From Candidatus Babeliales bacterium (lineage in GTDB: Bacteria; Babelota; Babeliae; Babelales; JACPOV01), in assembly GCA_050250855.1 (NCBI GenBank), contig JBFWNW010000003.1:145856-209855 (forward strand): 64,000 bases of DNA, read 5' to 3'. Of the stretch, positions 25,636-51,958 are shown one piece after another. Under the pieces are notes generated by a model, which ran no database searches, was not told the DNA's origin, and worked only from the letters and a program-made list of their open reading frames with translations. Position 1 is the first letter of the stretch. Each line of letters begins with the position of its first letter. Position numbers and translations under genes: made by a program.

Positions 25636-25655
25636 ATAAAATAGAGAAAACACTT

Positions 25656-26534: not shown

Positions 26535-26551
26535 AACTTGAGGAACCTCTT

Positions 26552-27523
26552 ATGAACCTTAAAAAGATAACTTTAGCAGCATTACTTGCCGCATACAGCT
26601 GCGGCCTACCTCTACAGGCGATGGAAATCAATCCCTTTAAAAAGACGGGCATTCCTACCATGGACCAGCACGGCACCCTTGTTAAAGTATGGGAAACAGG
26701 GATTCAAAAAGTTATTCAACATAATAGTTTTGTACGCGAAACGCTTCTGCCCAGAATACGTAAAGAAAATATCAATCACTTAAAGGGTAATGAATTTGAA
26801 GACCCTGCATTGCACTTTGATGCAAGTCCTGAAATGCAACAACTAGGCAAAGAGGCGCAAGAAAAACTAGGCATAACACTAGAACAACAAGTTCCTATAA
26901 AAATTATGAAAAATGATGACCCTTTTGATGTTCTGGCCAAGCATAACTCGGCAGGAATATTTATAAAAAATTATAGTACAAAAGATGATTTGAATCAGGA
27001 GCTTAAAAAATCTTTAGATAAGCATGTATTATTTCATGAGTCAGCACACAGAAAATATTGGGATTCAGAGCTAGGAACGGAATTTTCACTGTTTCTAGCA
27101 GGATACCTTCCCATAGCTCTTTCTTCTTTTTATTTAGGATATTCAAAACGAGTTAAAAATACCATTGAACAATACATACCTGATCAAAATCCAGGAGATA
27201 TACAATTTTTGGGAACATGTTCTTATCTTATTTCAATAGGATTGGCGTGGGCTTACTATGCATTTATTAAATATCCTCAACAAAAAAGTGCTTTCATTGA
27301 ATCTCGTGCCGATTATACCGCTTTACATGCCCTTGATTGCCACATTTGCGTAATAAATTGTTCTCAATTGTGGATGAGCCAAGATTCTGATGGGGGCAAA
27401 GAAAGAAAAAAATTAGGTTATTTTCCAAAAGAAGATATCGAAATCATTGCAGAAAAACTCTATAAGAAAAATAGAATCTGTGATTATCATGCTCAGCAAA
27501 AAAATATTACACAAAATTTATAA
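26552..27523 (+). CDS. M48-like zinc metalloprotease paralog B2
   Basis: HESAH at 27035-27049. ESRADYTALHAL. DCHIC...CDYH. Start at the conserved MNLKKITLAALLAAY. N- and C-termini are nearly identical to B1. Confidence 0.7.
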   Translation: MNLKKITLAALLAAYSCGLPLQAMEINPFKKTGIPTMDQHGTLVKVWETGIQKVIQHNSFVRETLLPRIRKENINHLKGNEFEDPALHFDASPEMQQLGKEAQEKLGITLEQQVPIKIMKNDDPFDVLAKHNSAGIFIKNYSTKDDLNQELKKSLDKHVLFHESAHRKYWDSELGTEFSLFLAGYLPIALSSFYLGYSKRVKNTIEQYIPDQNPGDIQFLGTCSYLISIGLAWAYYAFIKYPQQKSAFIESRADYTALHALDCHICVINCSQLWMSQDSDGGKERKKLGYFPKEDIEIIAEKLYKKNRICDYHAQQKNITQNL

Positions 27524-27623: not shown

Positions 27624-29381
27624 ATGAAGAAATCTCTTATATCCCTTAGTATCCTCTTTTTCTCTCTTACTTGTCTGCATGCAGCAACCGTTGATCTTAA
27701 ACTTAATAAAATCGATGAAAAAACTTATAAAGCGGAAGTCAGCTTTGCACTCCAAGATGGCGAGCTCCTGTATCAACACGTTACTGATTTTTCTGTAGAT
27801 AGTCCTTATGTCGCTCTAGGACCGGTCAACGCACACAAAAGCCCGCTTAATAAATATGACCCTATCAGTAAAGAAACGCGTTTGATTTTTGAGCATGACG
27901 TTACTTATAGCATGGATCTTGCCAATAAAAAAGAAGGCTCCAATCCTGCACGGTTTTACGTTACGTATCAAACAAACCAACAAACAGTTCCTGATTATAA
28001 AATTTTTGAACTCCCATTTTCTGTAAAAGCAGCAGAAGAAACAACTTTAACTAAACCTGAAAAAGCTGCTGAACAAAAAACTGTTCATACGGCAAAGCAA
28101 CAATCATGGCTTAATATTCATGCATGGTCTTCATTACTTTCTTCCGTTATTGAACAAAGTAAATCATTGCCAATTCGTTTAGCATTAGTATTCTTGCTTG
28201 GCTTATTGCTCAGCTTAACGCCCTGCATTTATCCTATGATTCCGATCACCGTTGGCATTTTACAAACACAACAAAAAAAATCAGTATTTCATAATTTTTT
28301 AAATGCTTTTGCTTACACTATAGGAATTTCTACTACGTTTGCTTGCCTTGGTCTCTTGGCAAGTTTTAGTGGCCCCATTTACGGCAAACTGCTCATGAGC
28401 CCTATTTCTGTAGGGATATTAGTTATAATGCTTGGGTATTTAGGATTATCTATGTTTGGACTTTATGATATTCAAGTGCCACAATTTTTGCGTACTCAAA
28501 AAACAATGCCGACGGGTGCTTCTTATATTTCATCATTTTTATTTGGTGCTGCAAGCGGTACCATTGCTTCACCGTGCGTATCACCAGGACTTATTTTATT
28601 GCTCAGTATTGTTGCTGGCCTTGGCAGTGTTTTTCTTGGGTTTCTCTTGCTCTTTGCTTTTGGCGTAGGATTAAGTATGCCGTTATTGCTTATTGGCACT
28701 TTTTCAACATCACTGAATATACTACCCCGCGCAGGACTGTGGATGGTGGAAGTAAAAAAGATTTTTGGCATCATGCTCTTTGCCGTCTGCTTTTATTATT
28801 TGCATAATATTATGGCATTAACAACGCTCATGTATTTGATAAGTATATTTTTAATGGCCCTTGGTACTTATTTTCTGGTAACAAGTCATAAAACAACTTC
28901 TTACGGCATTAAGCGCTATCATACGCTTATGGGATTTGTTTTGATATGCGCGTCACTTCTTTGCCTTGGTTATACCCTGCAGCATGCTTATTTAGTAGTG
29001 CCAGAAGAAAAACATGCTACTAATTTTTGGAACACCAATTATCAAGAAGCACGTCAAAAAGCAATCAATGAACACAAGTTATTATTCTTAGATTTTTGGG
29101 CAGAATATTGCAGCTTATGCAAAGCAATTAATAAAAAATTAATCTCTCAAGAAGGTATTAAAAAAGCTCTTCAAAAAACAGTACCAGTCAATATTAATGG
29201 TACTGATGAACAGCAAGAACCCTACAAAACGTTGCATACAAAGTTTTCTATTAAAGGCTTTCCGACCTATTTACTCGTTGATCCAACTAATGAGCTTGTG
29301 CTCAAAGAATGGCACAGTGAGTTGTATCACATGGATGAAGAAACTTTTGTTCAGGAATTAGAGCTGTATACTAAACGATAA
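27624..29381 (+). CDS. dsbD: Thiol:disulfide interchange protein DsbD-like (TM core plus C-terminal thioredoxin domain)
   Basis: TM cysteines in LSLTPCIYPM and ASPCVSPG. C-terminal thioredoxin WAEYCSLCK. The N-terminal periplasmic domain has no Cys. Confidence 0.8.
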   Translation: MKKSLISLSILFFSLTCLHAATVDLKLNKIDEKTYKAEVSFALQDGELLYQHVTDFSVDSPYVALGPVNAHKSPLNKYDPISKETRLIFEHDVTYSMDLANKKEGSNPARFYVTYQTNQQTVPDYKIFELPFSVKAAEETTLTKPEKAAEQKTVHTAKQQSWLNIHAWSSLLSSVIEQSKSLPIRLALVFLLGLLLSLTPCIYPMIPITVGILQTQQKKSVFHNFLNAFAYTIGISTTFACLGLLASFSGPIYGKLLMSPISVGILVIMLGYLGLSMFGLYDIQVPQFLRTQKTMPTGASYISSFLFGAASGTIASPCVSPGLILLLSIVAGLGSVFLGFLLLFAFGVGLSMPLLLIGTFSTSLNILPRAGLWMVEVKKIFGIMLFAVCFYYLHNIMALTTLMYLISIFLMALGTYFLVTSHKTTSYGIKRYHTLMGFVLICASLLCLGYTLQHAYLVVPEEKHATNFWNTNYQEARQKAINEHKLLFLDFWAEYCSLCKAINKKLISQEGIKKALQKTVPVNINGTDEQQEPYKTLHTKFSIKGFPTYLLVDPTNELVLKEWHSELYHMDEETFVQELELYTKR

Positions 29382-34027: not shown

Positions 34028-34044
34028 AAAACCTCAAAAAAAAT

Positions 34045-34128
34045 GGGAAGCGATACAAGATATTTTACACTTCTGCTGCTTCGTTTCCGACCTGACAGGG
34101 TGAGCATAAAAAACCTTTATTGCTTCCC
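34045..34128 (-). ncRNA. ffs: Small (4.5S-type) signal recognition particle RNA
   Basis: The minus-strand RNA starts GGGAAGCAAUA and ends UAUCGCUUCCC, which together form the closing helix. The apical domain IV, CAGGUCG-GAAA-CGAAGCAGC, matches E. coli CAGGUCC-GGAA-GGAAGCAGC. A U-tract follows. Confidence 0.85.
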
Positions 34129-34220
34129 AAACTTATAATTTCATTAACAAGATATTGTTATGGTATCTTATTTTATAAAAAAAACAACCGAAAAATAAAA
34201 GGCCCGCTACGCGCGACGGC

Positions 34221-34253
34221 GGATGGCCGTGCCATACGTAGCTTTAGCGAAGT
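34221..34253. repeat. Direct repeat copy 1 (ggatggccgtgccatacgtagctttagcgaagt)
   Basis: Identical to 34359-34390 apart from a 1-nt indel. Lies in a GC-rich segment between ffs and tRNA-Ser. Confidence 0.75.
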
Positions 34254-34358
34254 TAGACTTCTGTATTAAGTTCGGCCCTACTACGCCAAGGCTTCGAAGG
34301 GCATACTTCGCTTTCGTTTTCTTTAGTTAATCGTTCTTATTATATCAACCTTTAAAAA

Positions 34359-34390
34359 GGATGGCCTGCCATACGTAGCTTTAGCGAAGT
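34359..34390. repeat. Direct repeat copy 2, abutting the 3' end of tRNA-Ser
   Basis: ggatggcctgccatacgtagctttagcgaagt ends 1 nt from the tRNA CCA end at 34392. Confidence 0.75.
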
Positions 34391-34391
34391 A

Positions 34392-34483
34392 TGGCGGAGA
34401 GAGAGGGATTCGAACCCTCGATGCCTTTTTAGAGACATACACGATTTCCAATCGTGCTCCTTCGACCGCTCGGACATCTCTCC
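34392..34483 (-). tRNA. tRNA-Ser (anticodon GGA), CCA encoded
   Basis: Folded by hand. Acceptor stem is GGAGAGA/TCTCTCC. Anticodon stem is CACGA/TCGTG with loop TTGGAAA. It has a long variable arm, T-arm GAGGG-TTCGAAT-CCCTC, discriminator G and CCA. Confidence 0.9.
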
Positions 34484-35476: not shown

Positions 35477-36877
35477 TTAGCTCCCAATAACCTCATTATT
35501 CTTGACAGCACGAGCATAGCGTTTACCCAATAAATAGGCAGTTGCCAACCAACCAATAATAACAAGTATGAAGGTCGAGCCGTGAACTACAAACTGCATA
35601 ACCGGCCCAACAAAGTCTGAAATAATATTGAATACAGACCCGCAACCTCGTGCCATTTTTGATCCAAAAGCATCAATCCATGCCTTGGATTTAAATTTAA
35701 TATCTTTAACAGTAGGAATATACAAGCTTTCTCTAACCGGCATTGCAAACGCATAATTCACTGATTTCATCATAACAAAAACCAAGGTTAACGTTAGAGG
35801 GGAAGGCCACACCCAAAAAAACAAAAGAAGCAAGCCATTTACTGCAGGAATAAACAATAAGCAAAAACGTTCACCTAAAAAGCGCATCATATTTCTCGTT
35901 CCTATCAAAGAAATAAAAAATCCTGCAAGATGCATAGAAAACATTTGTTGGTACAAACGATAGCTAATATCAGAAACAGAGCTAGCATCTAATTGCACAA
36001 CCACAAGGCGCTGATAACTTAAAATTGCATTCAACACTTCGTAAAAAAAGAGCATACCAAAAATCCCTAATATATAAGGACGACTGAACAACATGGTCAA
36101 TCCGGACCAAAGACCAAGACTCTCTTCTTTTTCTACTTTCTTTTCTTTTTCTTTCTCTTTTTCTAGTTGATAAACCGCTTCATAGCCATGTAAAAAACTA
36201 CCAGGAACAGATTTCATAAGATATTTAACAACGAAAGGAATTACTAATGCAAAACATGAAAAGACTATCAATAAAATTTGATGATTGACAACATCAGAAA
36301 AAAATGGCTTTCCACTAACATCTCGCATTGTCAAAAAAAACCATGCAAAGCCTGCACTTAAAATACCACCTAGCTTTGAGCCTGATACTAAAACGCCATA
36401 ATTCTTTTTGGCCATCTGAGGATCACTCACTGAATTCGAGAATGCCCAGAATACACTCACCACAAAAGGAGAATATCCTTCTACAAAAAAATAAAACACC
36501 CAGCCAAACAAACGCCATGGACTTGCATCAGTATTTAACAACCCAATAGTCGGATGCCCAATAACATACGCACATATAAAGCCAAAAATTGCATAGGCAA
36601 TGCTATAAAAATAAAGAAGCTGATAACGGCGAAGTTTATCAACAAGTAATGAATAAAAAAGAATGGCTGGTATAAGAACAACCATTGCCAAACCTTTGGC
36701 ATAGGGAACATATTCTCTGCCAACAACGGTCATAAAAATTGAACTTTTTAGATCATAGATCATGGTATATGCAGCAATCACAAATAAATAAGTAAGTGAT
36801 AGTAACATAATTTTTGTTCGTTCATGTTTTTCTTTGCCAAACAGAGAAACCGATATCTGTGAAAGCACCTGATTCAT
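35477..36877 (-). CDS. NTT/TLC-family nucleotide translocase, paralog 2
   Basis: Polytopic protein with the motifs SPWRLFGWVFYFFVEGY and KSKAWIDAFGSK shared with the other NTTs. I prefer the ATG at 36877 with an AGGGGA RBS to the TTG at 36943. Confidence 0.8.
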   Translation of the reverse strand: MNQVLSQISVSLFGKEKHERTKIMLLSLTYLFVIAAYTMIYDLKSSIFMTVVGREYVPYAKGLAMVVLIPAILFYSLLVDKLRRYQLLYFYSIAYAIFGFICAYVIGHPTIGLLNTDASPWRLFGWVFYFFVEGYSPFVVSVFWAFSNSVSDPQMAKKNYGVLVSGSKLGGILSAGFAWFFLTMRDVSGKPFFSDVVNHQILLIVFSCFALVIPFVVKYLMKSVPGSFLHGYEAVYQLEKEKEKEKKVEKEESLGLWSGLTMLFSRPYILGIFGMLFFYEVLNAILSYQRLVVVQLDASSVSDISYRLYQQMFSMHLAGFFISLIGTRNMMRFLGERFCLLFIPAVNGLLLLFFWVWPSPLTLTLVFVMMKSVNYAFAMPVRESLYIPTVKDIKFKSKAWIDAFGSKMARGCGSVFNIISDFVGPVMQFVVHGSTFILVIIGWLATAYLLGKRYARAVKNNEVIGS

Positions 36878-36982
36878 CAAAAAATCCCCTAGACTTAATT
36901 CATTCAAAAACAGTTTAGCTACAAAAATAGCCTTCCAAAGCAAATCTGGAAGGCTATAATTTATTAGTTCATCATAACAAAC

Positions 36983-38365
36983 TTAACAAATAACTTCTTT
37001 GCGTTTGATTGCAGTATTATACGTACGAGCAACGTACACCGCAATAAAGAACCAAACACCAATAAGCCCTAGAGAAATTACAGAACTTACTACAATAAAC
37101 CATGCGGCACCATCAAGATATCCTTGGTTCTTGATGAAGAGGCCACGATAGTCATTGATATATGAACCTGCAGCTTTTGAACCGCGAGAACCAAACATCT
37201 CAATCCATGCTTGAGATTTATATTTAGTATCCGTTGAAGTTGGAATATAAAGCTGCTTTAAAGTTGGTTGATTTAATGCATAGTTAACCGCTTTTGCAAT
37301 TACCATGATCCAGAACACTATTGATAAACTTGGATCCGCATAAAGAACAAATACTGCTGTACCCACCAAAAGAGGCATCAATACTAATGAAGCAGTCATA
37401 CCCATTTTACGTTGAATATTGTTAATACCAAAAATAACACACAAGGTAGCTACTACGCCAGTCATCACTGCATAATTATTTAAATATTCAGCATGATCAA
37501 TTTCAATCGGGAATGCAGCTTTTGACATAGCTTTAAGCAAGAAGTCAAAAATGGTAACAATTACTTCGTAAATAGAAACAACTAAGAAAATACCAAGCAA
37601 ATATGGCTGTGTTAAAAGAAGCTTTAAGCCCTCCCAGAAGCCAGGCTCTTCACCTTCGCGTTTTGCAGCTGTGTCTTTTGATTCAAAACCTTTTAGCTGT
37701 CTTTTTGGTGTTGTCTTTAAGAATAGCCACATTAAGAATGCCATACCAAAACAAAAAACACCTACAATAGCAATAATAGGGCTACTGTTTGCAAAACCTA
37801 AACGCTTTGCACGCAAGAAGTATGGCCCAAAAATATTACCCATTTGACCTAGCAATGCAATAATAGGAAAACCACGTCTTGCAGAATCTTCCGGCGTAAT
37901 ATCAACAGTAATCGCCCAAAAGAGCGCTACAATTAATGAACCAAAGCTTTCTACAAATACATACCACAACCAACCAATGATTCGTGTTGAATCAGTTGTA
38001 GTATTTGGCAAGCCGTATACAGGATGGCTTAGATAGTATGCAAAGACTAAGCTTGCGATACCATAAAAAACGGTCAATACATAGAAAAGCTTTTGACGTG
38101 GAAACATGTCAATCAATTTGCTATAGATAATTACCAAAGGAACGATGATAAGCAAAGAAAGCCACTTTGCGCGAGGTTGCCAGTCAACACCCACAATAGC
38201 TGCAAAGATACTATCTTTTATCGGACGGAACGCCCAGTAAGAACCAATAATAAGACCAAAAATAGCACCTAAGAAAAGAAATTTTTGCAACTCTTCTCTA
38301 CTCTCAAACTCACCCCACATTGAAGTGGCAAAACTTTTTAAACGAGAAACAACACCGTTTAACAT
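36983..38365 (-). CDS. NTT/TLC-family nucleotide translocase, paralog 3
   Basis: 460 aa. WGEFESREELQKFLFLGAIFGLIIGSYWAFRPIKDSIF closely parallels paralog 1. KSQAWIEMFGSR. Confidence 0.85.
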   Translation of the reverse strand: MLNGVVSRLKSFATSMWGEFESREELQKFLFLGAIFGLIIGSYWAFRPIKDSIFAAIVGVDWQPRAKWLSLLIIVPLVIIYSKLIDMFPRQKLFYVLTVFYGIASLVFAYYLSHPVYGLPNTTTDSTRIIGWLWYVFVESFGSLIVALFWAITVDITPEDSARRGFPIIALLGQMGNIFGPYFLRAKRLGFANSSPIIAIVGVFCFGMAFLMWLFLKTTPKRQLKGFESKDTAAKREGEEPGFWEGLKLLLTQPYLLGIFLVVSIYEVIVTIFDFLLKAMSKAAFPIEIDHAEYLNNYAVMTGVVATLCVIFGINNIQRKMGMTASLVLMPLLVGTAVFVLYADPSLSIVFWIMVIAKAVNYALNQPTLKQLYIPTSTDTKYKSQAWIEMFGSRGSKAAGSYINDYRGLFIKNQGYLDGAAWFIVVSSVISLGLIGVWFFIAVYVARTYNTAIKRKEVIC

Positions 38366-41321: not shown

Positions 41322-42554
41322 ATGAATATGAAAAAAAAGATAGTACTATTTTCTTTTTGGTTACTGTTAGCGCATAATGCTTTAGGTTCAAAAAATATAT
41401 TTTTTGATGCAATCAGCGCATTCTTTTCTCCAAAAAAACCACTCACCGTTATTGTCTATATGGCTGCGCGAAATGATTTACATTCTTTTATATTTGATGA
41501 TCTTTCAGAAATGGAGAAAGTTGGCTCAACCAGTTACCTTAATATCTTAGTATATTTAAATGCATTATCACCAGAGCAAGAAAAAATAACACGTAAACTG
41601 GTAATTCATAAAGGACATACTACGCAATATGGTCCTGATAAAAGCAAAGATAGTGGCGATGCACAAACTGTTATTGATGCCTGCAAGTGGGCTATTAAAC
41701 ATTATCCTTCAGATCAATTTGTTCTTATTTTCTGGAACCATGGTTCTGGCTCACTTAATAGAAACCCTCGTAGCGTATGTTACGATGATGCTACAGGAAA
41801 TTACTTAACCGATTATGACATTAAATTTGCCCTTAAAGAAGTAACTAGACTCTTAGGTAAAAAAATTGACATCGTTGCTTTTGATGCATGCTTAATGGCA
41901 GATCTTGAAATCGCATACATGTTAAGAGAATACGCTCAGTACATCGTAGCATCTCAAGAATTAGTTCCTGGAAAAGGATTTGGCTATGATCTTATATTCG
42001 AATATCCAGCTTCTCATCGCGTTAATTCTTATGAATTAGCAAAAATTATGGTGCATGCTTTTGAAAAAGAATATATCAATGAAACACAAGAATACACACT
42101 CTCTGCTCTTAATCTATCAAAAATTGATGGCATCACTATGAATAATAATAGGATAGCAGAACTACTGACTCGAGCGCTAGAAACAAAAGATTCAAATGTC
42201 GCCCTCATTGCTGCTGCTCTTGCTGAGTGTACCTGCTTTGATAAAAAATATATGGACTTGTATCATTTTTACCAAAACATACAAAAACTTCTAACGCAGT
42301 TTAACCTCAGCGCTCCTGATAAAAAAAATCTTAATGAACTTCTTGAGGAAGGATTTGACCTTATCAAACGAGCTACGGTTGATTATGTTCATGGCAACTT
42401 ATATCCAAATTCCCATGGACTTTCTCTCTATTTTGATCCTATTGCTATGGATAGCACCTATCCAACAACATTATGGGCTCAAGATACGCATTGGATAAAA
42501 TTTCTCACAACCTACTATGCCATGAAAACTAATCCTGCTGTTCAACCTGCTTGA
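41322..42554 (+). CDS. Secreted clostripain-like cysteine peptidase (family C11)
   Basis: Signal peptide. VYMAARNDL. Catalytic dyad context is FWNHGSG (His) and VAFDACLMA (Cys). The start may be the ATG at 41328. Confidence 0.7.
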   Translation: MNMKKKIVLFSFWLLLAHNALGSKNIFFDAISAFFSPKKPLTVIVYMAARNDLHSFIFDDLSEMEKVGSTSYLNILVYLNALSPEQEKITRKLVIHKGHTTQYGPDKSKDSGDAQTVIDACKWAIKHYPSDQFVLIFWNHGSGSLNRNPRSVCYDDATGNYLTDYDIKFALKEVTRLLGKKIDIVAFDACLMADLEIAYMLREYAQYIVASQELVPGKGFGYDLIFEYPASHRVNSYELAKIMVHAFEKEYINETQEYTLSALNLSKIDGITMNNNRIAELLTRALETKDSNVALIAAALAECTCFDKKYMDLYHFYQNIQKLLTQFNLSAPDKKNLNELLEEGFDLIKRATVDYVHGNLYPNSHGLSLYFDPIAMDSTYPTTLWAQDTHWIKFLTTYYAMKTNPAVQPA

Positions 42555-43218
42555 CATGATTAAGCATAGTTGAAACTGTTTGGTCTAAGGTAAGGTTAGA
42601 ATTATCAACAACATATGCATTTTTAGGAATGGTCAAGGGCGCAATATCGCGCTCTTGATCTCGCGTATCTCGCTCTTCAATCTGAGCTTCAGCATCTTTC
42701 AGCGTTATAGCATTGCCATAGGATTTTTGTAATTCTTGTAATCTGCGAGCTCGTTCAGCAAGAGCTGCCGTTAAATAAAACTTGATCTCCGCAGCATCAA
42801 AAACTACAGAACCGCTATCACGTCCTTCAACTACAACGTCACGTTGTTTAATGCATTCACGTTGCATGAGATTTAAAGCATCTCTAACATCTTTATTGGC
42901 AGCAATAATAGATGCACCCTGAGAAACTAAATCACTTTTTAAAAATGGCGTGATATCTTGATTACCATAAATAACTTTTCCACAATTAGTTTGATCTAGG
43001 CAATATTGAAATTTTTGTGGATCAAGAGCATCACGTATATCATCGGCATTCAAATGTTCTAATGTTTCTTTTGAATACCCATAAAAATTCAACAATATAT
43101 AAGCAAGTGCGCGATATAAATAACCGCTACTCAAACAATAGAAATTAAGATCTTTTGCTAATTTTTGTGCAACAGATGATTTACCACTTGCAGTGGGACC
43201 ATCAATAGTAATAATCAC
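42529..43218 (-). CDS. cmk: Cytidylate kinase
   Basis: IITIDGPTASGKSS P-loop. GTG start overlapping the recJ stop (GTGA). Confidence 0.88.
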   Translation of the reverse strand: MIITIDGPTASGKSSVAQKLAKDLNFYCLSSGYLYRALAYILLNFYGYSKETLEHLNADDIRDALDPQKFQYCLDQTNCGKVIYGNQDITPFLKSDLVSQGASIIAANKDVRDALNLMQRECIKQRDVVVEGRDSGSVVFDAAEIKFYLTAALAERARRLQELQKSYGNAITLKDAEAQIEERDTRDQERDIAPLTIPKNAYVVDNSNLTLDQTVSTMLNHVKQVEQQD

Positions 43219-44954
43219 GGTAAATCCTTATTTGTTGTAAGCGCACAATCGACACCTAGTAATTCTACGCTTGTTTTTCCTTGCCAATGATTTTCTGTTA
43301 CATGAACAGCTATATCAAAGCTTTCTTGTTGTTGTTGTTTGAAGAATTCAAATAATTCTGGACGATTAAAAAAAACAAGTGGTTTTATAATACCATCAGC
43401 AAACACTGAACATTTGACATGTACATCTTTAAGAAGCACTGGCTCTTGCACTATGCTTACCTCTTTTACATGAAAAACTGGTTGAGGATTCTCATTACCA
43501 AATGGTTCTAAATGTCGTAAATCTTGTACCAATTTTTGCGTAACATCAGAGAGCGGCAAATCAGCATCAATAACAATTTTTTGCTGTAAATCAAAAGGAT
43601 CAAGTTTTTCCTGCACCATGTCTTCTAAATGTTTCTTTAAAAGCGGCACATTATCCAAAGAAAGCGCTAAGCCTGCTGCCAGTGAGTGGCCGCCAAATGA
43701 ATCAAGCAATGATGATGCACTCTGTAAAGCATCAAACATATTAAACTCTGGAATAGATCTACAAGAACCTTTTGCTTTTCCATCGCTGGTAATGTGAAAT
43801 AGTATGGTAGGCTTACCATATGCACTTACCAAACGCGAAGCTACAAGACCTATAACACCGGGAGGCCATTGCTTACTTGCTGCAATAATAACATTTTCAT
43901 GCTCAAGATTAATTTTCTTTGATTCAATCTGTGTTACAACGTCTGCAAAAATACCACGCTCAATCTCTTTACGCGCCTGATTCAATTCTAAAAGAACGGT
44001 ACCAACCTGATCAATTTCTTTATAATCAGAGCCTATAAGAAATTTTACTCCCTGCCGAGGATCTTCTAATCTACCAAGAGCATTAAGCTGCGGCGCTATA
44101 GAAAAGCCAATATCAGTTGCTGATAAAATCGATCGCGTTACATTTCCATTCTTTTTTAAGACTTTAAAAGCATAACTTTCCATTTGATTAATATACTGCA
44201 AGCCATAACGAACCCAGTAACGATTTTCCCCTTTTAAAGGAACAACATCCGCTATAGTTCCTAGAAGTAATAACTCTATTGCCTTTGGTGGAATAGGTTT
44301 TTGCAACGTTTCATATAACAAAGCAATAAGTTTAAAGGTAACGCCTACACCGGCCAAACTTTTGAAAGGATAAGGGCAATCGGCTTGATTAGGATTAACA
44401 ACAGCAAATGCTGTTGGAATATGATCATGAGGGCGATGGTGATCGGTAATAATAAGATCCATTCCTAAATCTAATGCTCGCTTGGCAGGTTCAAAAGCAG
44501 TAATGCCATTGTCTACGGTAATAATAACTTTATACCCATTTTGTGCAGCACGTTCAACAACTTTGGTAGAAAGTCCATAACCATCTTTCACGCGATGTGG
44601 TAAATAAAAATTAATTAAAGCACCTAATGGCTGCAATGCCAACATCATTAAGGATGAAGATGTAATGCCATCAACATCATAATCCCCAAAAACTAGTATT
44701 TTTTCATTATGTTTTATGGCATGCAAAATACGCTCAACAGCCTTTTGAGCATCTTTTAATAAGGAAGGATGCGCAACGTCTCTTTCTAATGAAGTAAAAA
44801 GAAAAGAGTCGATGGCTTGCGTTGTTTCATAACCACGGGTAAATAATGTTTGTGCTACTGCTGATGAAATATTGTATGAGCTTGCACAATCAATAATCTT
44901 TTTTGGGTCACCTTGAGCTAGGCGCCATGCATATTTTTTACCTTGAAGATACAT
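43215..44954 (-). CDS. recJ: Single-stranded-DNA-specific exonuclease RecJ
   Basis: DHH motifs (FGDYDVDG, ITVDNG, ITDHH) and DHHA1 motif GGHSLAAG. Confidence 0.9.
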   Translation of the reverse strand: MYLQGKKYAWRLAQGDPKKIIDCASSYNISSAVAQTLFTRGYETTQAIDSFLFTSLERDVAHPSLLKDAQKAVERILHAIKHNEKILVFGDYDVDGITSSSLMMLALQPLGALINFYLPHRVKDGYGLSTKVVERAAQNGYKVIITVDNGITAFEPAKRALDLGMDLIITDHHRPHDHIPTAFAVVNPNQADCPYPFKSLAGVGVTFKLIALLYETLQKPIPPKAIELLLLGTIADVVPLKGENRYWVRYGLQYINQMESYAFKVLKKNGNVTRSILSATDIGFSIAPQLNALGRLEDPRQGVKFLIGSDYKEIDQVGTVLLELNQARKEIERGIFADVVTQIESKKINLEHENVIIAASKQWPPGVIGLVASRLVSAYGKPTILFHITSDGKAKGSCRSIPEFNMFDALQSASSLLDSFGGHSLAAGLALSLDNVPLLKKHLEDMVQEKLDPFDLQQKIVIDADLPLSDVTQKLVQDLRHLEPFGNENPQPVFHVKEVSIVQEPVLLKDVHVKCSVFADGIIKPLVFFNRPELFEFFKQQQQESFDIAVHVTENHWQGKTSVELLGVDCALTTNKDLP

Positions 44955-45004
44955 AAAAACCTTCTACATAATAGTATTTTGCTATTAAGTATGCTCTTTT
45001 TATT

Positions 45005-45040
45005 AAAAAATTAAAGCCCCCTGATTTTCAGAGGGCTTTT
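45005..45040 (-). terminator. Rho-independent terminator after the cPLA2-like gene
   Basis: Stem aaagccccctg (45013-45023) pairs with cagagggcttt (45029-45039), with 1 mismatch. A T-rich run follows on the minus strand. Confidence 0.6.
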
Positions 45041-45061: not shown

Positions 45062-46954
45062 TTATGCTGCTGGATTAAGACGTCGCTTCATCCACGTTTT
45101 AAGAGCTTCTTTATTTGCTATAAGATTATTACCCGCCAACGCAGAAAGTTCATTAAATGTTTTCTTGCCATACCCAAAGTTAAAAGTATTGCATTCACTT
45201 TCTTTTACGCAAGCCTGCGGATCAAAAGTAGCCACTGTATCAAATAATCCCGCAGTTTTTAATACTGCATCATCTTTCATATAGTTAACATATATAATTA
45301 AAGGAGGCTTGACTGAAGGATAATCTTTATAATTATTTTGCGGCTCAAATACCTTAAATGTTTTATTATCAACTACTTTATTATAGGTAATACCATAAAA
45401 ACTTTGAACGTCTTTAAGGCCAAGAACAAGCTCACTGTCATCACCATTTGGTTTATCAACAACATTGGCAGAAGCATCACCAACGATAATAATATCTATT
45501 TTGCGCTCTGGTCTAAAGAGTGGACGTATTGGAATATTATAAGAAAGACCTGCGTCAACTAAGGTTAAATAATCATATTGTTGCAAGGCAGAAGAGGCTT
45601 GCGCAAAACCTTTAAAAGGATTAAATACTTGTGCTGGTGAAATACGCTGAGGAACTTCTAATCGTTTTTTTCTTATATCCAGTTTATACTCACCTGTTGC
45701 AGCCCATGCTCTGACTAATCGTGAGCCAGCATAATCTTTGGCATCGTTAAATACTTTTTCAATATCGCCTTTTGCTAAATTCTTAGCCCCTTTTTTAATA
45801 AGGTTTGCAAAATCTTGCACTTCTTTTTTTGCCTTATCAAGCACACTTTTATTCTTTGCGTCCTCAGCCTCCATACTTGGAAACATAAGATTAGCAATTG
45901 ATTGAGCATTAATCGTATATGCAGAACCAAAAATTCCCATTAAAAACCCAAAACTTTGACCTGCAGAGAATTTACCTGTCCCTTTAGAAAATTTAGTACC
46001 AAATGCCCATGATGGGAAGAAAAGACTTTCTTCCAAATTTCTTACCTCTTCTGGATTAAATTCATACCAATGATAGGTAAAATCACGCGGCACTGCACCA
46101 TCACGTATACCAGCAGCAGTATAAATTGGCCATGGCGTATTACCGGTACTAACAAGAGGCAACTGAGAAAAAATTCTTTGTTGATGACGAGCCTCTCCTT
46201 TTTGAGCTAACAAATAATGAGAAAGAACACCGCCATAAAGATCTACCGATGTTATGGTTTGTCCAAATATAATTTTTGGCCAAAGAATGTTTGCATTAAA
46301 ATTTGAAAAATTAAAATCAGTAAGTGCATCTTTCTTTGTTGCTATATCAAAATGGTTTGTATCTATCTTTCTTACCAAAAGAGCATTAAACTCCGATGGG
46401 GTCAAAGGCATTAATTGTGCTGGTTGTATCACCCCACGAATACGCGGTCTAAAACCACCTGTTTTGCTTTCTAATAACCAAGGCCCCAAATACCATGTTG
46501 AACCAGATAACGCAGAAACATATAAAATAGAGTTTAAAATACCTAATTTTTCTAATGCTTCCATCCACCCTGCTGTTGCAATCATAGCACGATAGCCGCC
46601 ACCACTAAATGCACATGCCACATTTAAATCTTGCTTAACGGTTTCCCCTAAAAACGCAGAAAGAGCTTGTTGGGCTTTAGCTCGTCTTTTTGTTAAAAAT
46701 GATCTCTCAGCTGCGCTCATTTGATTATTTTTTGCAACATACGCTGTTTGATTTCTGTAAGGATAATCAGGATCGGTAGACTTCATATTATCAGTATAAA
46801 ATTTGGTAAAACTGGGCAAACTAAATAGTTGCCAAAATTCTGCCATACGCGTTTGTATGCTTTTGGTGAATTCTGTTATAGAGCTAAAATCTTTTGCTCC
46901 ATACAATGCATTGCTCACGAGCAACATAGCTAATAATATCTTTTTCTTCTGCAT
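45062..46954 (-). CDS. Secreted eukaryote-type cytosolic-PLA2/lysophospholipase-like enzyme (PLA2_B domain)
   Basis: Signal peptide. SGGGYRAM (oxyanion/Arg), YVSALSGSTWY (nucleophile Ser, codon about nt 46505-46507) and LVDAGLSYNIP (Asp) parallel human cPLA2-alpha SGGGFRAM, GLSGSTWY and VDSGLTFNLP. Confidence 0.8.
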   Translation of the reverse strand: MQKKKILLAMLLVSNALYGAKDFSSITEFTKSIQTRMAEFWQLFSLPSFTKFYTDNMKSTDPDYPYRNQTAYVAKNNQMSAAERSFLTKRRAKAQQALSAFLGETVKQDLNVACAFSGGGYRAMIATAGWMEALEKLGILNSILYVSALSGSTWYLGPWLLESKTGGFRPRIRGVIQPAQLMPLTPSEFNALLVRKIDTNHFDIATKKDALTDFNFSNFNANILWPKIIFGQTITSVDLYGGVLSHYLLAQKGEARHQQRIFSQLPLVSTGNTPWPIYTAAGIRDGAVPRDFTYHWYEFNPEEVRNLEESLFFPSWAFGTKFSKGTGKFSAGQSFGFLMGIFGSAYTINAQSIANLMFPSMEAEDAKNKSVLDKAKKEVQDFANLIKKGAKNLAKGDIEKVFNDAKDYAGSRLVRAWAATGEYKLDIRKKRLEVPQRISPAQVFNPFKGFAQASSALQQYDYLTLVDAGLSYNIPIRPLFRPERKIDIIIVGDASANVVDKPNGDDSELVLGLKDVQSFYGITYNKVVDNKTFKVFEPQNNYKDYPSVKPPLIIYVNYMKDDAVLKTAGLFDTVATFDPQACVKESECNTFNFGYGKKTFNELSALAGNNLIANKEALKTWMKRRLNPAA

Positions 46955-47122
46955 ATAATCTCCTCTTTTTTATACAGAAAACTTTGTTCTAACAACACCT
47001 TGGAGTATAAAAGGTAGCGTGCAAAAAAAGCAACATTTTAAAAATAACAAATCAACTATTGCTCTTTATAAAATTAACACGCTATACTGCGTACAAAAAT
47101 GAAATAGTAAGGAGATTAAGGA

Positions 47123-49372
47123 ATGAAAACATTCAGATTTTTTAGTATAATTATAGCTGCATGCATACTGCATACTATCCATGCACAAGAATCACTTCAA
47201 CAAGAACTTTCAAAAAAAGTAAATGCAAGAGCTCCTTTTTCTGGTTCCATTTTTAATAATATTTTAGCACAACTTCAAATACCCCAAGCCTCAATTAATA
47301 TTGTTAAAGGCCTTTTTATAAAAACTCCTGTTCCCATTAAGCTTCCTGGCGAACTGACAAGTGGGACAGCTTTTGAAGGAGATGTTTTTTTCAAAGGAAA
47401 AGACACTAAAATTAAAGTTGTAGTTGGCCAAACGTTAACAAATCCTGAAGCTTTTAGTTTATCACTTGCTTTACCAGCGGGATGGAAGCTTTCTGATATT
47501 AGCTCACAACTTAGTTATTTAGATGAACTTTCTCTTACTAATGGTCAACTTATTTATTCAAATTTTATGTACAAAGATCTAGAACTTGCCACTGAAGTAC
47601 AAGCTGGTCTTAACTTTGTTGCAGATATCGCGCTAAAACCACCGCTCACTGTTTTGAATAAACTGATGGCAAATCAAAAAAAATTAAATGGGCTCGTAGT
47701 CGAAGGCGGCGCTGCAAAATTTAAAGGAACAGTAGCGCCAGATATAACCCAATCCTCATTTCTTATAGATTTACCGTTACGTTTTGGTGTTAATTTTGAA
47801 GCATTAGCAAAAAACCCAACCATACAAAACAATAAAGATGCAGAAAAAGTCGCACAAGCAGTAGCAAAAGTAATAAAAGAAATAACATCCGATACGTTTA
47901 CCGTAGAAGTAACACCACCGCCAAGTGTTGGCTTTTCAGTTGGCAGTGGCGTACGACTCCTGCTTGCAACACAAAAAGAACCAATAAGTTTTGATATGAG
48001 CGGACAACTTGTTGCTGGAGCACAAGAAGCACTTAATATGGTAGGGCAAATGAAAGGACCCCTGCACCTTGCCCAATGGCTTACTTTTTCTGATGCAGGA
48101 TTAGAGATTGATTGGGATTTTGCCCTTATTTCAGAGCTTGCCGCTGTTGGTATTCCTCTTCCTTTCACCGGCCTTGGCATGAGTGGCTGGGTTTATCTTG
48201 GCAAGGAAGGTGATAAACAAGCAGCTATAAATCTTACCGGTGGCCTTCGCTTCAAACAAGGAGATAAATTTCCTTCAGAATTTGCATTCCAAGGCATTGG
48301 TAAAAATTTAGATTTTAAATATGTAGTACAATTTTTAGCAGAAAAAATTGCAAAAAAAAGAATTAATGCAAGTATCCCTACTATGATGCTAAAAGACTTT
48401 ATCGTAAAAGCATCCCCCGTACCTACTAAATTTATCGGAGAAAAATATGAAGCAGGAATGCTTTTTGATGGTAATGCACAACTTTTTGATGTTGATGCTT
48501 CTCTTCATTTTAGTTTAAATCCAGACCCAACAGTTTTGGCTATGACAGGAAATGGAAAAGCTTCTGTCATAAATATCACTTCCCAAGGCAAAAAGCTTTT
48601 CACGCTTTCTGGATCAAAACCTAATGAAGGACCTTCTTTGAGCTTCTTGGTATCAGCAAAAAATCCTGAAGCAACTAACTTTATGTTTGACGGCACACTC
48701 GATATTCCTGTATTAGGAATACGAGAACAAGTAAAAAATTTACGCGTAGAGCTTGATAGAATATCAGGAACTTTTGAATCAAAACTTGGTAATCTTCTTG
48801 ATGTTGATGCTACCGTTAACATTCAACCATCACAACCACTCAAATCTGAAGTTGATCTTGCCTTCAAACAAAATATTGTAGACGTGCTTTCAAAATCTGT
48901 TTCTGCAAAGCTCCGCGCAGCAAAGGTGCAATTTGAAAAAACTAAAGCAGAAAAAGAGCTTGAAGAAAAAAAACAAGAGTTTCATGACAAGTGCAAAGGA
49001 ACTAATTATTTTAAACATATAAAAACATGCTCAAAGTTATCCGCAGAAATAACGGCGCTAGGAACAAAAGTTGCCGCAGAAAAAACTAAACAAGCTTTTG
49101 ATCCAAAAAGAATTAAAGATATCTTAGAAGAAATTGCACAAAAAGCATTAGTTCCTGCGCTCAAAGCTTTTGAAATCAAAGAAATGAGTGCTTCATGGAA
49201 AGCTTCACAGGGATTACCTGTTATTAACAAGATGGTAATACACATTAACGTCGCAAGCTTTAAAAAGGTAATTGAGCTCACTAATATCTCCTTTGACCCT
49301 AAGAATATAGCTAAAGACCTTGATACCTGGGCAAACCTGATTGTAAAAGAGATCATTAACCAGATAAAATAG
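47123..49372 (+). CDS. Large secreted protein, function unknown
   Basis: 749 aa. Signal peptide MKTFRFFSIIIAACILHTIHA. AGGAG RBS. Coiled-coil-like C-terminal 150 aa. No recognisable family. Confidence 0.7.
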   Translation: MKTFRFFSIIIAACILHTIHAQESLQQELSKKVNARAPFSGSIFNNILAQLQIPQASINIVKGLFIKTPVPIKLPGELTSGTAFEGDVFFKGKDTKIKVVVGQTLTNPEAFSLSLALPAGWKLSDISSQLSYLDELSLTNGQLIYSNFMYKDLELATEVQAGLNFVADIALKPPLTVLNKLMANQKKLNGLVVEGGAAKFKGTVAPDITQSSFLIDLPLRFGVNFEALAKNPTIQNNKDAEKVAQAVAKVIKEITSDTFTVEVTPPPSVGFSVGSGVRLLLATQKEPISFDMSGQLVAGAQEALNMVGQMKGPLHLAQWLTFSDAGLEIDWDFALISELAAVGIPLPFTGLGMSGWVYLGKEGDKQAAINLTGGLRFKQGDKFPSEFAFQGIGKNLDFKYVVQFLAEKIAKKRINASIPTMMLKDFIVKASPVPTKFIGEKYEAGMLFDGNAQLFDVDASLHFSLNPDPTVLAMTGNGKASVINITSQGKKLFTLSGSKPNEGPSLSFLVSAKNPEATNFMFDGTLDIPVLGIREQVKNLRVELDRISGTFESKLGNLLDVDATVNIQPSQPLKSEVDLAFKQNIVDVLSKSVSAKLRAAKVQFEKTKAEKELEEKKQEFHDKCKGTNYFKHIKTCSKLSAEITALGTKVAAEKTKQAFDPKRIKDILEEIAQKALVPALKAFEIKEMSASWKASQGLPVINKMVIHINVASFKKVIELTNISFDPKNIAKDLDTWANLIVKEIINQIK

Positions 49373-49470: not shown

Positions 49471-50760
49471 ATGAAGAAACGTATAATAATAGTTGCAGGT
49501 TTTCTTGTGTTATCTGCAGGAATCTTGCAAGCGTTTAGCTTTAAAGATATTGGCAAAGGTATAGAAAAGGGTGCTCATGAGGTTGAAAAAGGCGTAAAAA
49601 AAGGTGCCCATGAAGTTGAAAAGGGTGGCAAAACTGCCGTGGGAGCCATTACCAACATAAATCCAGCAGCCGAAGCAAATAAACTTACCAATAAAGCGTT
49701 AGGTACTCTAGGTATAAACCTTCCTGGTATTGAAAAAGATATTGTCATTATTGAGCAAAATATAGATAGACTTATTAATGATGTAGGAGCACTAAAAAAG
49801 ACCGTAAATCCTACTATAGATCAGGCAAAAAATATTGTTAGAGATTTGGGTAATTTTCAAAAAGAAGCTAAAAAAGTTGTAGGCGAAGTAAAAGCAGACG
49901 TGAAAAAAATAGCCGGTGCAATAACCGATCCTTCAAAAATTCCTGGCTTAGCACTTGAAGCTGGCAAAGAAGGACTTACGGGTATAAAAGCACTTGCTGA
50001 CATACACGCAACTTTATTAAAAGATATTGACGGCCTTGAACTTAAAGCTACGCTTGATCTAGCCTCACGTTTAACGCAAGAAGTTTCTTCTCTTTTAAAT
50101 GCTATTGAAGGATTAGAAAAAAACACTGGTCGTCTCGGTTCTCTGGTAATACCAAACAACTTAAAAACAGCATTATCACAAGCAAAACAACATATTAATA
50201 ATCTTGCCTTACATACCGGTAAAATTTATCAACCAATAGGCCTCTCTGCTCAAGAAATGGAACTTCAAGTTGCTATGGGACTTCTTTCCAACTTATCGGG
50301 AATAGTAAGCTTAAAAGATGATATTACAAAAACGGTTTCCGTAACGAAAGAACAGATTGGTATTATTACCAAAACACTTCCATTGCTAAAGCAGCAAATA
50401 GGCGCTTTGAAAAAATATGCTAAAGATTTACCAAAAACAGTTGCTAATGGTTTATTGGATAGATTCAAAAGCAACCCGCCAGCAATCATTGTAGCGGGTC
50501 CTAGTTATGCAGTTACATCAGTGCAAGCGGCAATAAAAACATTTAATACCTACATAAATAATATTATGCGTGATGGTAATAAATTATTACTTGCTCTGAG
50601 CACGATCATTAGCACTGGTGCTGCAGCAGCAGATACGTTTAATAAAACATTAAAAGATCATGCTATTCTGCCTCAACAATCTCTTGATGCGCTCAAAGAT
50701 GTTGGTGTAGATACTAAAGACTTATCACAAGATGTGGTAAATCTTGGACGAGCATTGTAA
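49471..50760 (+). CDS. Secreted, predicted all-helical protein, function unknown
   Basis: 429 aa. Signal peptide. Tandem KGAHEVEKG x2 near the N-terminus (nt about 49567-49626). Heptad-like Leu/Ile/Ala/Lys-rich sequence throughout. Confidence 0.7.
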   Translation: MKKRIIIVAGFLVLSAGILQAFSFKDIGKGIEKGAHEVEKGVKKGAHEVEKGGKTAVGAITNINPAAEANKLTNKALGTLGINLPGIEKDIVIIEQNIDRLINDVGALKKTVNPTIDQAKNIVRDLGNFQKEAKKVVGEVKADVKKIAGAITDPSKIPGLALEAGKEGLTGIKALADIHATLLKDIDGLELKATLDLASRLTQEVSSLLNAIEGLEKNTGRLGSLVIPNNLKTALSQAKQHINNLALHTGKIYQPIGLSAQEMELQVAMGLLSNLSGIVSLKDDITKTVSVTKEQIGIITKTLPLLKQQIGALKKYAKDLPKTVANGLLDRFKSNPPAIIVAGPSYAVTSVQAAIKTFNTYINNIMRDGNKLLLALSTIISTGAAAADTFNKTLKDHAILPQQSLDALKDVGVDTKDLSQDVVNLGRAL

Positions 50761-50800: not shown

Positions 50801-51958
50801 ATGAAAAAGCTAATGTTAGCAGTTTTAGCGGCTGCAACAATAACCAATATCTATGCAGAACGCTTATCCCCAAGGATAGGCATTACAAGAAAACCAAAAA
50901 ATGAAGTAAATTTCAGTATTTTAACTATTAATATGGGACTTCTTGCGCTGACTACTGATATTTTGCAAGATCTTGGCGGCGATGAATTAAAGAAAATTGG
51001 TGCAGAAGACATTGTTAAAAATATATTGAATATTTTTGGACTTGGTGGCTCAACAAAGCTTATGGAAGTTGGAAAGCTAAAACACAACAAAGAACGTGCT
51101 TTACTCTTGAGCGAAACTCTTAAAAGATTACAGCGTGAAGGTAAGTTGCCGGGAATTGTTTTAATGCAGGAAGGCTTTGACGTACCTGTTGTAAAAAATG
51201 ATTTTTATAAAGCTATGAGCTCGGTATATCCTTACCACTATCAAGATGAACGCGCTGGCCGTGTAACGGTTGATGCAAGAGGTAAAAAAATAAAATTACC
51301 AATTGGTACCAACTCTGGGTTATCTTTATTTAGTATGTATCCTCTTAAAAAAGTACAAGTTTGGGACTATGAATGTTTTGTTGGTGAAGGAGCATTCGCA
51401 CGTAAAGGTCTTTTAGGTGCTGAAGTTAACATTAATGGTCAAACCGTATACGTCTTTACAACGCACTTGCAAGCAGGAGTTGGTGCTGAACCATTCAAAT
51501 TCCTTAATAAAGAAAACCTTCTTCCTACACAATGTAAACTTGATGGTAAACTTATAGATCCAAAAACGCAAAAACTAACAACTGATGATGTTCGTAAAGC
51601 AGAATTACAACAAGCAGCTCAACTTATCAATCAATTTGCTACTGATAAAAAGGCTCCCGTAATCCTTGCCGGTGACTTTAATATGAATGCTAATGATCCT
51701 AAAAAAATAGAAACTATTAAATCAGTATTCCCTCAGGCAGAGTTGCTTTATAATGCAGGAAAATCAGCTCCTCATACAGGAACTGTATGGAATGTAACCA
51801 ATAAAAAGCTTGATGAAGGAAATAGAATTGACCACATGATCATTATCCGTAATCCAGGTAATAGACTTACGGGTGATGCATGGATTGATGCTATAAACTT
51901 CACGTGGCAAATATCTGACCATGCTGCTATGATTGGTGAATTCTCATTACAAAAATAA
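50801..51958 (+). CDS. Secreted sphingomyelinase-C-like EEP-family phosphodiesterase
   Basis: Signal peptide. VLMQEGFD, VFTTHLQAG, LAGDFNMN and ISDHAAM match the EEP catalytic motifs and the THLQA context of bacterial neutral sphingomyelinases. Confidence 0.75.
   Translation: MKKLMLAVLAAATITNIYAERLSPRIGITRKPKNEVNFSILTINMGLLALTTDILQDLGGDELKKIGAEDIVKNILNIFGLGGSTKLMEVGKLKHNKERALLLSETLKRLQREGKLPGIVLMQEGFDVPVVKNDFYKAMSSVYPYHYQDERAGRVTVDARGKKIKLPIGTNSGLSLFSMYPLKKVQVWDYECFVGEGAFARKGLLGAEVNINGQTVYVFTTHLQAGVGAEPFKFLNKENLLPTQCKLDGKLIDPKTQKLTTDDVRKAELQQAAQLINQFATDKKAPVILAGDFNMNANDPKKIETIKSVFPQAELLYNAGKSAPHTGTVWNVTNKKLDEGNRIDHMIIIRNPGNRLTGDAWIDAINFTWQISDHAAMIGEFSLQK

Follow-up and report, generated by a model that had tools for sequence, protein, structure and literature searches.

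A cPLA2/PLB-type phospholipase with a predicted Sec signal peptide lies at a conserved recJ-adjacent locus in Babeliales

Introduction

The PLA2_B family of phospholipases (Pfam PF01735) is best known from eukaryotes. Its group IV members, the cytosolic phospholipases A2 (cPLA2) such as human cPLA2-alpha and cPLA2-delta, carry a C2 domain and reside in the cytosol. The secreted phospholipases B of fungi (PLB; PLB1 of Cryptococcus, Candida and Saccharomyces), which also belong to PF01735, combine a signal peptide with the PLA2_B domain and have no C2 domain; they are extracytoplasmic and disulfide-compatible, act on phospholipids of the host or the environment, and are known virulence factors. 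Lysophospholipase and transacylase activities are known from enzymes of this cPLA2/PLB type. Intracellular and pathogenic bacteria likewise turn phospholipases against host membranes, usually patatin-like effectors of a different family (PF01734) such as ExoU, VipD, PlpD and Rickettsia Pat1/2. Here we describe a gene for a PLA2_B protein of 630 amino acids (aa) on a 64,000-nt stretch of DNA from Candidatus Babeliales bacterium (assembly GCA_050250855.1, contig JBFWNW010000003.1, positions 145,856 to 209,855), which we call the window and to which all coordinates refer. An earlier account of this DNA, made without database searches (the sequence-only reading), had proposed that the protein was a eukaryote-type enzyme acquired from a eukaryotic host and put to use as an effector.

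Members of the phylum Dependentiae live inside protists as obligate parasites (PMC6561590, PMC4378268, PMC4776705). TM6 bacteria neither synthesize nor degrade fatty acids and probably draw on host lipids, by a route not yet understood; components of a type II secretion system (T2SS) are common to all TM6 genomes (PMC4776705). Babela has kept phospholipid synthesis and not fatty-acid synthesis, with the T2SS as its sole secretion system (PMC4378268), and in Chromulinavorax, where 44% of coding sequences (CDS) carry signal peptides, secreted hydrolases and vesicles have been proposed to dismantle the host (PMC6561590). Chlamydia recruits and activates host cPLA2 at its inclusion as one fatty-acid source (PMC5693948). 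Our literature search turned up no account of PF01735 enzymes from Dependentiae or from any other bacteria; no phospholipase is mentioned in the three main Dependentiae genome papers (PMC6561590, PMC4776705, PMC4378268), and a cPLA2-type annotation was not found in the available portions of the supplementary files of the Babela and Chromulinavorax papers.

Results

The window protein is a PLA2_B enzyme with the cPLA2 fold

The gene exists as the sequence-only reading described it, with the protein sequence quoted there, and lies on the minus strand, which that reading had not specified. It begins with ATG behind a Shine-Dalgarno sequence, upstream of recJ and cmk on the same strand:

45062..46954, minus strand: CDS of the PLA2_B (cPLA2/PLB-type) phospholipase, 630 aa (open reading frame, PF01735, 1CJY match, AlphaFold2 model, Foldseek)
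46960..46964, minus strand: Shine-Dalgarno AGGAG, 5 nt upstream of the ATG (from sequence)
45003..45039, minus strand: intrinsic terminator-like hairpin (12-bp stem, 3-nt loop) and T run in the gap between the phospholipase gene and recJ
42529..44954, minus strand: recJ and cmk, the downstream neighbours that mark the orthologous locus (Pfam, synteny in 12 other genomes, co-divergence)
43215-44954, minus strand: recJ (Pfam)
42529-43218, minus strand: cmk (Pfam)

All the sequence and fold criteria that we tested identify the protein as a cPLA2/PLB-type enzyme and a member of PF01735. Its score for that family is 92.8 bits (E 2.2e-26), where the curated cut-off is 23, and nine relatives score 73-121 bits. 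The Pfam scan returned neither a C2 domain nor any other domain besides PLA2_B, and a scan with NCBIfam returned nothing meaningful. When the sequence was searched against PDB with phmmer, human cPLA2-alpha (1CJY) came out on top (E 1.1e-26) with cPLA2-delta next, and the alignment to 1CJY pairs SGGGYRAM with SGGGFRAM, ALSGSTWY with GLSGSTWY and VDAGLSYN with VDSGLTFN, which bears out the three catalytic signatures named by the sequence-only reading. A profile made from an alignment of 73 relatives (A1) and searched against PDB found 1CJY as one continuous match spanning residues 145-722, the entire catalytic domain (301 bits, E 1.3e-88), and cPLA2-delta at 221 bits; the patatin-like PlpD reached just E 0.2. 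An AlphaFold2 (AF2) model built on A1 has a mean predicted local distance difference test score (pLDDT) of 85.2 and a predicted template modelling score (pTM) of 0.88, and with this predicted model as query the ten best Foldseek matches are all cPLA2-alpha or cPLA2-delta chains (E 2.7e-23 to 7e-15, template modelling (TM) scores 0.51-0.64), led by 1CJY (E 2.7e-23, TM 0.62-0.64). None of VipD, ExoU, PlpD, patatin or the CBASS phospholipases matches the model at E 0.05 or better. We rejected a patatin identity, against which the sequence-only reading had also argued: PF01734 scores 13.8 bits, under its cut-off of 27.7, and the patatin-like matches to the model are at E 0.06 or worse.

The closest described systems are thus human cPLA2-alpha (group IVA, 1CJY) and cPLA2-delta (5IXC/5IZ5), which share family and fold with the window protein. 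Homology to cPLA2-alpha runs end to end across catalytic domain residues 145-722 and takes in the Ser-Asp dyad, the GGGxR motif, R566 and the TFNF-Y motif, at about 21-22% identity in structural alignment. There are also clear differences. Group IV cPLA2 enzymes have a C2 domain and the window protein has none, with its residues 21-80 modelled as helical at modest confidence, so that Ca2+-driven docking of the group IV kind is not expected; the human enzyme resides in the cytosol, whereas the window protein begins with a signal peptide; the cap or lid is shorter, helical and variable compared with that of human cPLA2; and the bacterial family has a C-x5-C pair that human cPLA2-alpha does not. 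By its sequence, then, the protein would not be a strict group IV cPLA2, because it lacks a C2 domain and is not predicted to be cytosolic. The layout is not unusual, since a signal peptide followed by PLA2_B without C2 is that of fungal secreted PLB, to which we liken the window protein by architecture and not by sequence; neither the glycosylation nor the glycosylphosphatidylinositol (GPI) anchoring of the fungal enzymes is to be expected in the bacterial one. Patatin-like effectors have a Ser-Asp dyad and a glycine-rich oxyanion loop likewise and are functional analogues from a different family, with Foldseek E 0.06-0.5 and TM 0.12-0.17 against our model, and they travel by type III, type IV or type V secretion systems rather than by a Sec-only route.

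Catalytic residues are conserved across the family

We counted conservation over 280 relatives aligned together with the human cPLA2-alpha domain; A2 below denotes a second alignment. The elements concerned are these:

46589..46603, minus strand: codons 118-122, GGGYR, oxyanion-hole glycines and phosphate-binding Arg (human G197, G198, R200), invariant in A1 and A2
46499..46513, minus strand: codons 148-152, ALSGS, nucleophile elbow with Ser150 (human Ser228 in the 1CJY alignment)
45548..45559, minus strand: codons 466-469, VDAG, with catalytic Asp467 (human Asp549 in the 1CJY alignment)
45646..45904, minus strand: codons 351-437, variable Lys-rich helical hairpin at the cap/lid position (AF2, 1CJY alignment)
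45191..45211, minus strand: codons 582-588, C-x5-C pair, candidate disulfide, invariant in A2

Ser150, which the sequence-only reading had picked as the nucleophile and which aligns to human Ser228, is present in 280/280 relatives, as is Gly151, and Asp467 is present in 279/280. The GGGxR motif (G118-G119-G120-Y-R122) is kept in 275-278/280, with Gly119 in 275/280 and both Gly120 and Arg122 in 276/280. Because the catalytic residues are essentially invariant among these 280 relatives, the cPLA2/PLB-type enzyme appears to be under selection to remain active. The Lys-rich hairpin (AF2 helices 361-387 and 395-420, pLDDT 65-83) aligns with the cap region of 1CJY and differs in length between relatives. 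Cys582 is found in 192/280 relatives and Cys588 in 221/280, and neither cysteine is present in human cPLA2-alpha.

Two further regions of the protein vary. After the nucleophile helix the window copy has a 21-residue insertion, ESKTGGFRPRIRGVIQPAQLM (codons 161-181, 46412-46474), which is missing from all 13 close relatives aligned and is modelled with low confidence. At the other end, most close relatives (for example L002-L010 and P0002-P0049, with 8 recJ-adjacent orthologues included) finish in an acidic-aromatic-Gly-Gly tail such as PEFGG, EFEFGGGF or EFEFEF. We asked whether secreted proteins encoded nearby share this tail, as they would if it served generally for sorting, and rejected the idea: the tail is carried by 12/335 open reading frames (ORFs), and 8 of those 12 are the phospholipase itself.

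The N-terminus predicts export

46895..46954, minus strand: codons 1-20, Sec-type signal peptide (KKK n-region, ILLAMLLV core, SNA/YGA c-region, no lipobox Cys)

The protein starts with MQKKKILLAMLLVSNALYGA, in which three lysines are followed by a hydrophobic core of 8 residues and by SNA, a small-x-small site. The sequence-only reading had proposed a Sec signal at this end. There is no cysteine, and the signal would therefore be of the signal-peptidase-I type and not that of a lipoprotein. The AF2 model places a low-confidence helix at residues 4-17. A signal-like N-terminus, scored by a simple rule on hydrophobicity and charge, is shared by 185/218 full-length relatives. DsbD is encoded in the window (27624-29381, plus strand), and the signal-like N-terminus, the Cys pair and DsbD together fit a protein that would fold outside the cytoplasm.

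The gene is inherited with recJ and has native composition

A homologue of the phospholipase lies directly upstream of recJ, in the same orientation, in 12 other species-level genomes; cmk follows recJ in 9 of the 12, with lon beyond in two. The RecJ of the window is 60-75% identical to that of metagenome-assembled genomes (MAGs) labelled Candidatus Babeliales, Dependentiae or TM6. Over the 13 genomes, pairwise identity is 25-68% for the phospholipase and 56-90% for RecJ, and the identity values of the two proteins correlate across genome pairs (Mantel r 0.67, permutation p 0.0002); L004, whose RecJ comes closest to that of the window (74%), also has the phospholipase most identical to that of the window (38%). 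The composition of the gene is that of its surroundings. Its GC content (0.361), GC content at third codon positions (GC3, 0.231) and codon-usage distance (0.65) fall inside the spread of the window's 46 ORFs, whose means are 0.363, 0.269 and 0.82, in a window of 36% GC, and no mobile-element features were seen flanking the gene within the window. From synteny, co-divergence and native composition it follows that the gene has been inherited vertically and not recently transferred, and that it was already adjacent to recJ in the common ancestor of these Babeliales and has evolved fast since. The proposal of the sequence-only reading, acquisition of the gene by this genome from a eukaryotic host, finds no support in these data, which contradict a recent event, and the comparison of GC and codon usage that it had suggested shows a gene typical of the window and not foreign.

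A word-index search gave 213 relatives, of which the best 120 all have PF01735 at 26-39% identity, and every named one among those 120 is from Babeliales or Dependentiae. An exhaustive search of 1.84 billion representatives gave 1598 matches at E<=1e-3, 1023 at E<=1e-10 and 348 at E<=1e-30, and the best 150 are all Dependentiae-type proteins. In a scan of one genome per GTDB species we found about 60 full-length relatives, essentially all in Dependentiae-type MAGs and with two or three copies in several genomes; the scan, which used a 14-sequence alignment, depends on two motifs, and absence from other phyla is not rigorous on that basis. There was no match to the family among plasmids, a single match in IMG/VR covering a 43-residue motif stretch only, and among the BFVD viral structures weak patatin-like matches with none of cPLA2 type, so there is no sign of a mobile or viral vector. 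NCBI mostly names the family proteins 'hypothetical', with one record of 'Lysophospholipase catalytic domain protein', and JGI uses 'phospholipase A2'.

The affinity to eukaryotic enzymes is nonetheless strong. The human cPLA2 enzymes are the eukaryotic sequences that we compared, and within-family distances (median 1.35) are as large as those to the human enzyme (1.15-2.1). For some paralogues human cPLA2-alpha outscores a quarter of the bacterial relatives, and because it ranks within the lower quarter of the family in this way, a clean split between bacteria and eukaryotes is not demonstrated. Internal branches came out close to zero in a human-rooted neighbour-joining tree of 281 sequences, and we draw no conclusion from that tree. 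The deep bacterial clade that the sequence-only reading had named as evidence against horizontal transfer is nearly what the Dependentiae family provides, while the lack of eukaryotic affinity that was to accompany it is not what we see. An ancient transfer between domains at the root of the family, with direction and donor open, would explain its origin most simply. Such a transfer is plausible, since outside Dependentiae the family is known from eukaryotes, the very organisms inside which Dependentiae live.

Paralogues can carry added domains. Many of them (P0060, P0096 and others) have an N-terminal domain of about 120 aa (residues about 20-150, motif ITVHNTT..YVAIYY) that AF2 models as a beta-sandwich at pLDDT 88, L058 has three tandem copies of it ahead of the catalytic domain, and P0128 (905 aa, from the representative library) fuses PLA2_B to C-terminal ankyrin repeats, a domain of host interaction. 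We rejected a C2 identity for the beta-sandwich, since nothing in PDB matched it at an E-value under 1e-3 and its best 50 matches included no C2 domain.

Some family members sit in genomes with other labels. One genome labelled Alteromonas naphthalenivorans (L060, JBLICC010000002.1) and several 'uncultured Pseudomonadota' MAGs (L002, L030, L034, L036 and others) carry them, and some of these MAGs show the Dependentiae-type arrangement of phospholipase, recJ and cmk; their taxonomic labels or binning are probably wrong. Short matches in Bradyrhizobium, Acidobacteriota, Patescibacteria and others (L061-L080) were set aside as true patatins (PF01734, 64 bits) and not PLA2_B. They form a conserved patatin family of about 400 aa with a cPLA2-like SGGGYRAM motif, its Arg included, and score 21.9 bits for PLA2_B against the cut-off of 23.

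The surroundings of the gene

The hairpin behind the gene (45039..45013, minus strand) starts 22 nt past the stop codon, has G-C pairs at 6 of its 12 positions and runs into a T run, in agreement with the claim of the sequence-only reading that the gene has its own terminator; terminator-like sites are fivefold commoner in the region than in shuffled sequence. A promoter scan gave no more sites than shuffles and we claim no promoter, and two antisense ORFs within the phospholipase gene found no support. The other features of the window that bear on its biology are as follows:

788-2140, 35477-36943 and 36983-38365, minus strand: three paralogous TLC ATP/ADP translocases, 28-46% mutual identity
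8043-9386, minus strand: ankyrin-repeat protein with signal peptide
34039-34483, minus strand: small signal recognition particle (SRP) RNA adjoining a tRNA
41322-42554, plus strand: clostripain-family (C11) peptidase with signal peptide (Pfam)
47123-49372 and 49471-50760, plus strand: two signal-peptide proteins of 749 and 429 aa, no Pfam or PDB sequence match
50801-51958, plus strand: EEP-family protein with signal peptide, 385 aa (PF03372, 27.8 bits)

TLC ATP/ADP translocases are a hallmark of energy parasitism. The best PDB matches of the EEP-family protein are sphingomyelinase C and staphylococcal beta-hemolysin, weak ones at E 3e-4 to 4e-3, and it may be a second exported enzyme attacking host lipids, 4 kb from the phospholipase; together with the clostripain-like protease, it fits a local set of exported host-degrading enzymes. 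The clostripain-like gene and cmk are convergent and overlap by 26 nt at their 3' ends. The gene of the 749-aa protein is divergent from that of the phospholipase and is not kept beside its homologues in other genomes. Many further signal-peptide proteins without known domains are encoded in the window. Taken with the RecJ identities, this gene content marks the bacterium as an uncultured member of Dependentiae.

Elsewhere in the window, four tandem paralogues of 305, 321, 292 and 346 aa (23780-27523, plus strand) have no Pfam match and share near-identical signal peptides and N-termini of the form ..KKITLAALLAAYSCGLPLQAMEI[DN]PFKKTGIPTMDQH.., and an FtsH-like protease of 892 aa (14025-16703, minus strand) has two AAA stretches before its M41 domain and is longer than ordinary FtsH.

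Discussion

We consider it probable, and well short of certain, that the window protein is an active Sec-exported serine phospholipase of the cPLA2/fungal-PLB type (PF01735), one of a vertically inherited Dependentiae family, and that it acts on host phospholipids. We infer its cleavage, export, passage beyond the periplasm, substrate and physiological role from the evidence given above, and a possible course of events can be put together as follows. The signal peptide would carry the protein across the inner membrane, where it would fold outside the cytoplasm, probably with a Cys582-Cys588 disulfide, and a T2SS or outer-membrane vesicles might then bring it to a host-derived vacuole or the host cell. 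There the Ser150-Asp467 dyad would cleave acyl esters of host glycerophospholipids, as a PLA2, PLA1 or lysophospholipase, with Gly119 and Gly120 serving as the oxyanion hole and Arg122 holding the phosphate; with no C2 domain, the enzyme would not be expected to dock to membranes in a Ca2+-dependent manner. The freed fatty acids and lysophospholipids could nourish a bacterium that cannot make fatty acids, and a higher dose of the same activity might weaken the vacuolar or host membrane. The phrase 'secreted membrane-active effector', used in the sequence-only reading, is a reasonable one for such a protein. Its conserved, core-like position next to recJ favours a basic nutritional role, and its fast evolution, the expansion of paralogues, the extra beta-sandwich domains and the ankyrin fusion favour a host-facing one; fast evolution is often typical of exported proteins that face a host.

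Several observations weigh against this reading of the protein. Its activity is deduced from sequence and fold, and substrate and positional specificity are not readable from the sequence. The first position of the G-x-S-x-G elbow is Ala and not Gly in the window protein (107 of the 280 relatives have Gly there, 73 have Ala, 43 Ser and 40 Thr). The signal peptide was judged from sequence features and not with a dedicated predictor, no T2SS genes are found within the 64-kb window, and secretion past the periplasm is likewise a matter of prediction, with the role of the T2SS taken from the literature. The acidic-aromatic-Gly-Gly tail is absent from the window copy, which ends in RRLNPAA (45062-45100), and should the tail serve in sorting, the window copy may behave unlike its relatives. 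Finally, the exact gene is present in runs of landfill metagenomes, from which the sequence comes, and in none of the RNA runs.

One might instead see the protein as a membrane-lytic effector that ruptures the phagosome or vacuole or lyses the host for exit, with nutrition at most a by-product. The same enzymology and the same evidence for export would serve this explanation equally; several copies per genome, N-terminal domains that differ between paralogues and a single fusion to ankyrin repeats are what is typically seen in effector families, the EEP-family protein with its weak similarity to sphingomyelinase C and beta-hemolysin lies close by, and ExoU and fungal PLB1 are known to damage host membranes. 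Lysis of the host is known from cultured Dependentiae, including Babela and Chromulinavorax, yet Vermiphilus is among those Dependentiae with stable, non-lytic host relations (PMC6561590), and the copy beside recJ keeps its position across deeply diverged genomes as a core function would. We think a mainly lytic role rather unlikely, and a lytic role is in any case not exclusive of lipid scavenging. It is harder still to argue for envelope housekeeping, by which the protein would be a periplasmic or outer-membrane lysophospholipase or transacylase working on the bacterium's own or imported lipids and leaving host membranes untouched. The Sec signal is the only export signal evident, a periplasmic location would suit the conserved Cys pair and the presence of DsbD, and the gene holds its place beside housekeeping genes; but it evolves much faster than those neighbours (compare the identity ranges given above for RecJ), and an expanded family with extra beta-sandwich or ankyrin domains looks more host-facing, which makes this role distinctly improbable in our view.

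That this genome recently took the gene from its current eukaryotic host is hardly credible. Such a transfer would suit a family best known from eukaryotes, and human cPLA2 enzymes are the best solved relatives; Dependentiae, which live in protists, are also reported to have taken up eukaryotic genes (PMC4378268). Against this stand the closest relatives, all from Dependentiae among the best 120 of 213, together with the recJ-cmk synteny, the co-divergence with RecJ, the native composition and codon usage, and the lack of flanking mobile-element features in the window. Returning to the preferred reading of an exported phospholipase acting on host lipids, one can take it a step further and speculate, tentatively and as a possibility more doubtful than the reading itself, that this phylum-wide, repeatedly duplicated, secreted cPLA2-type family is the missing acyl-scavenging device of Dependentiae and stems from one very old PLA2_B transfer between domains.

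The phospholipase represents a real, unstudied and probably important bacterial branch of a known enzyme family. It documents a large bacterial branch in a protein family that is usually treated as eukaryotic, and it bears on the origin of cPLA2 and PLB and on gene exchange between protists and their parasites. For Dependentiae, an exported cPLA2-type family offers a concrete and testable candidate for the acquisition of host lipids that earlier work left open (PMC4776705), and for damage to host membranes. The analogy to Chlamydia, which recruits the host's own cPLA2, would be one of function only (PMC5693948), and if it is true, Dependentiae would bring with them their own version of an enzyme that Chlamydia must borrow from its host.

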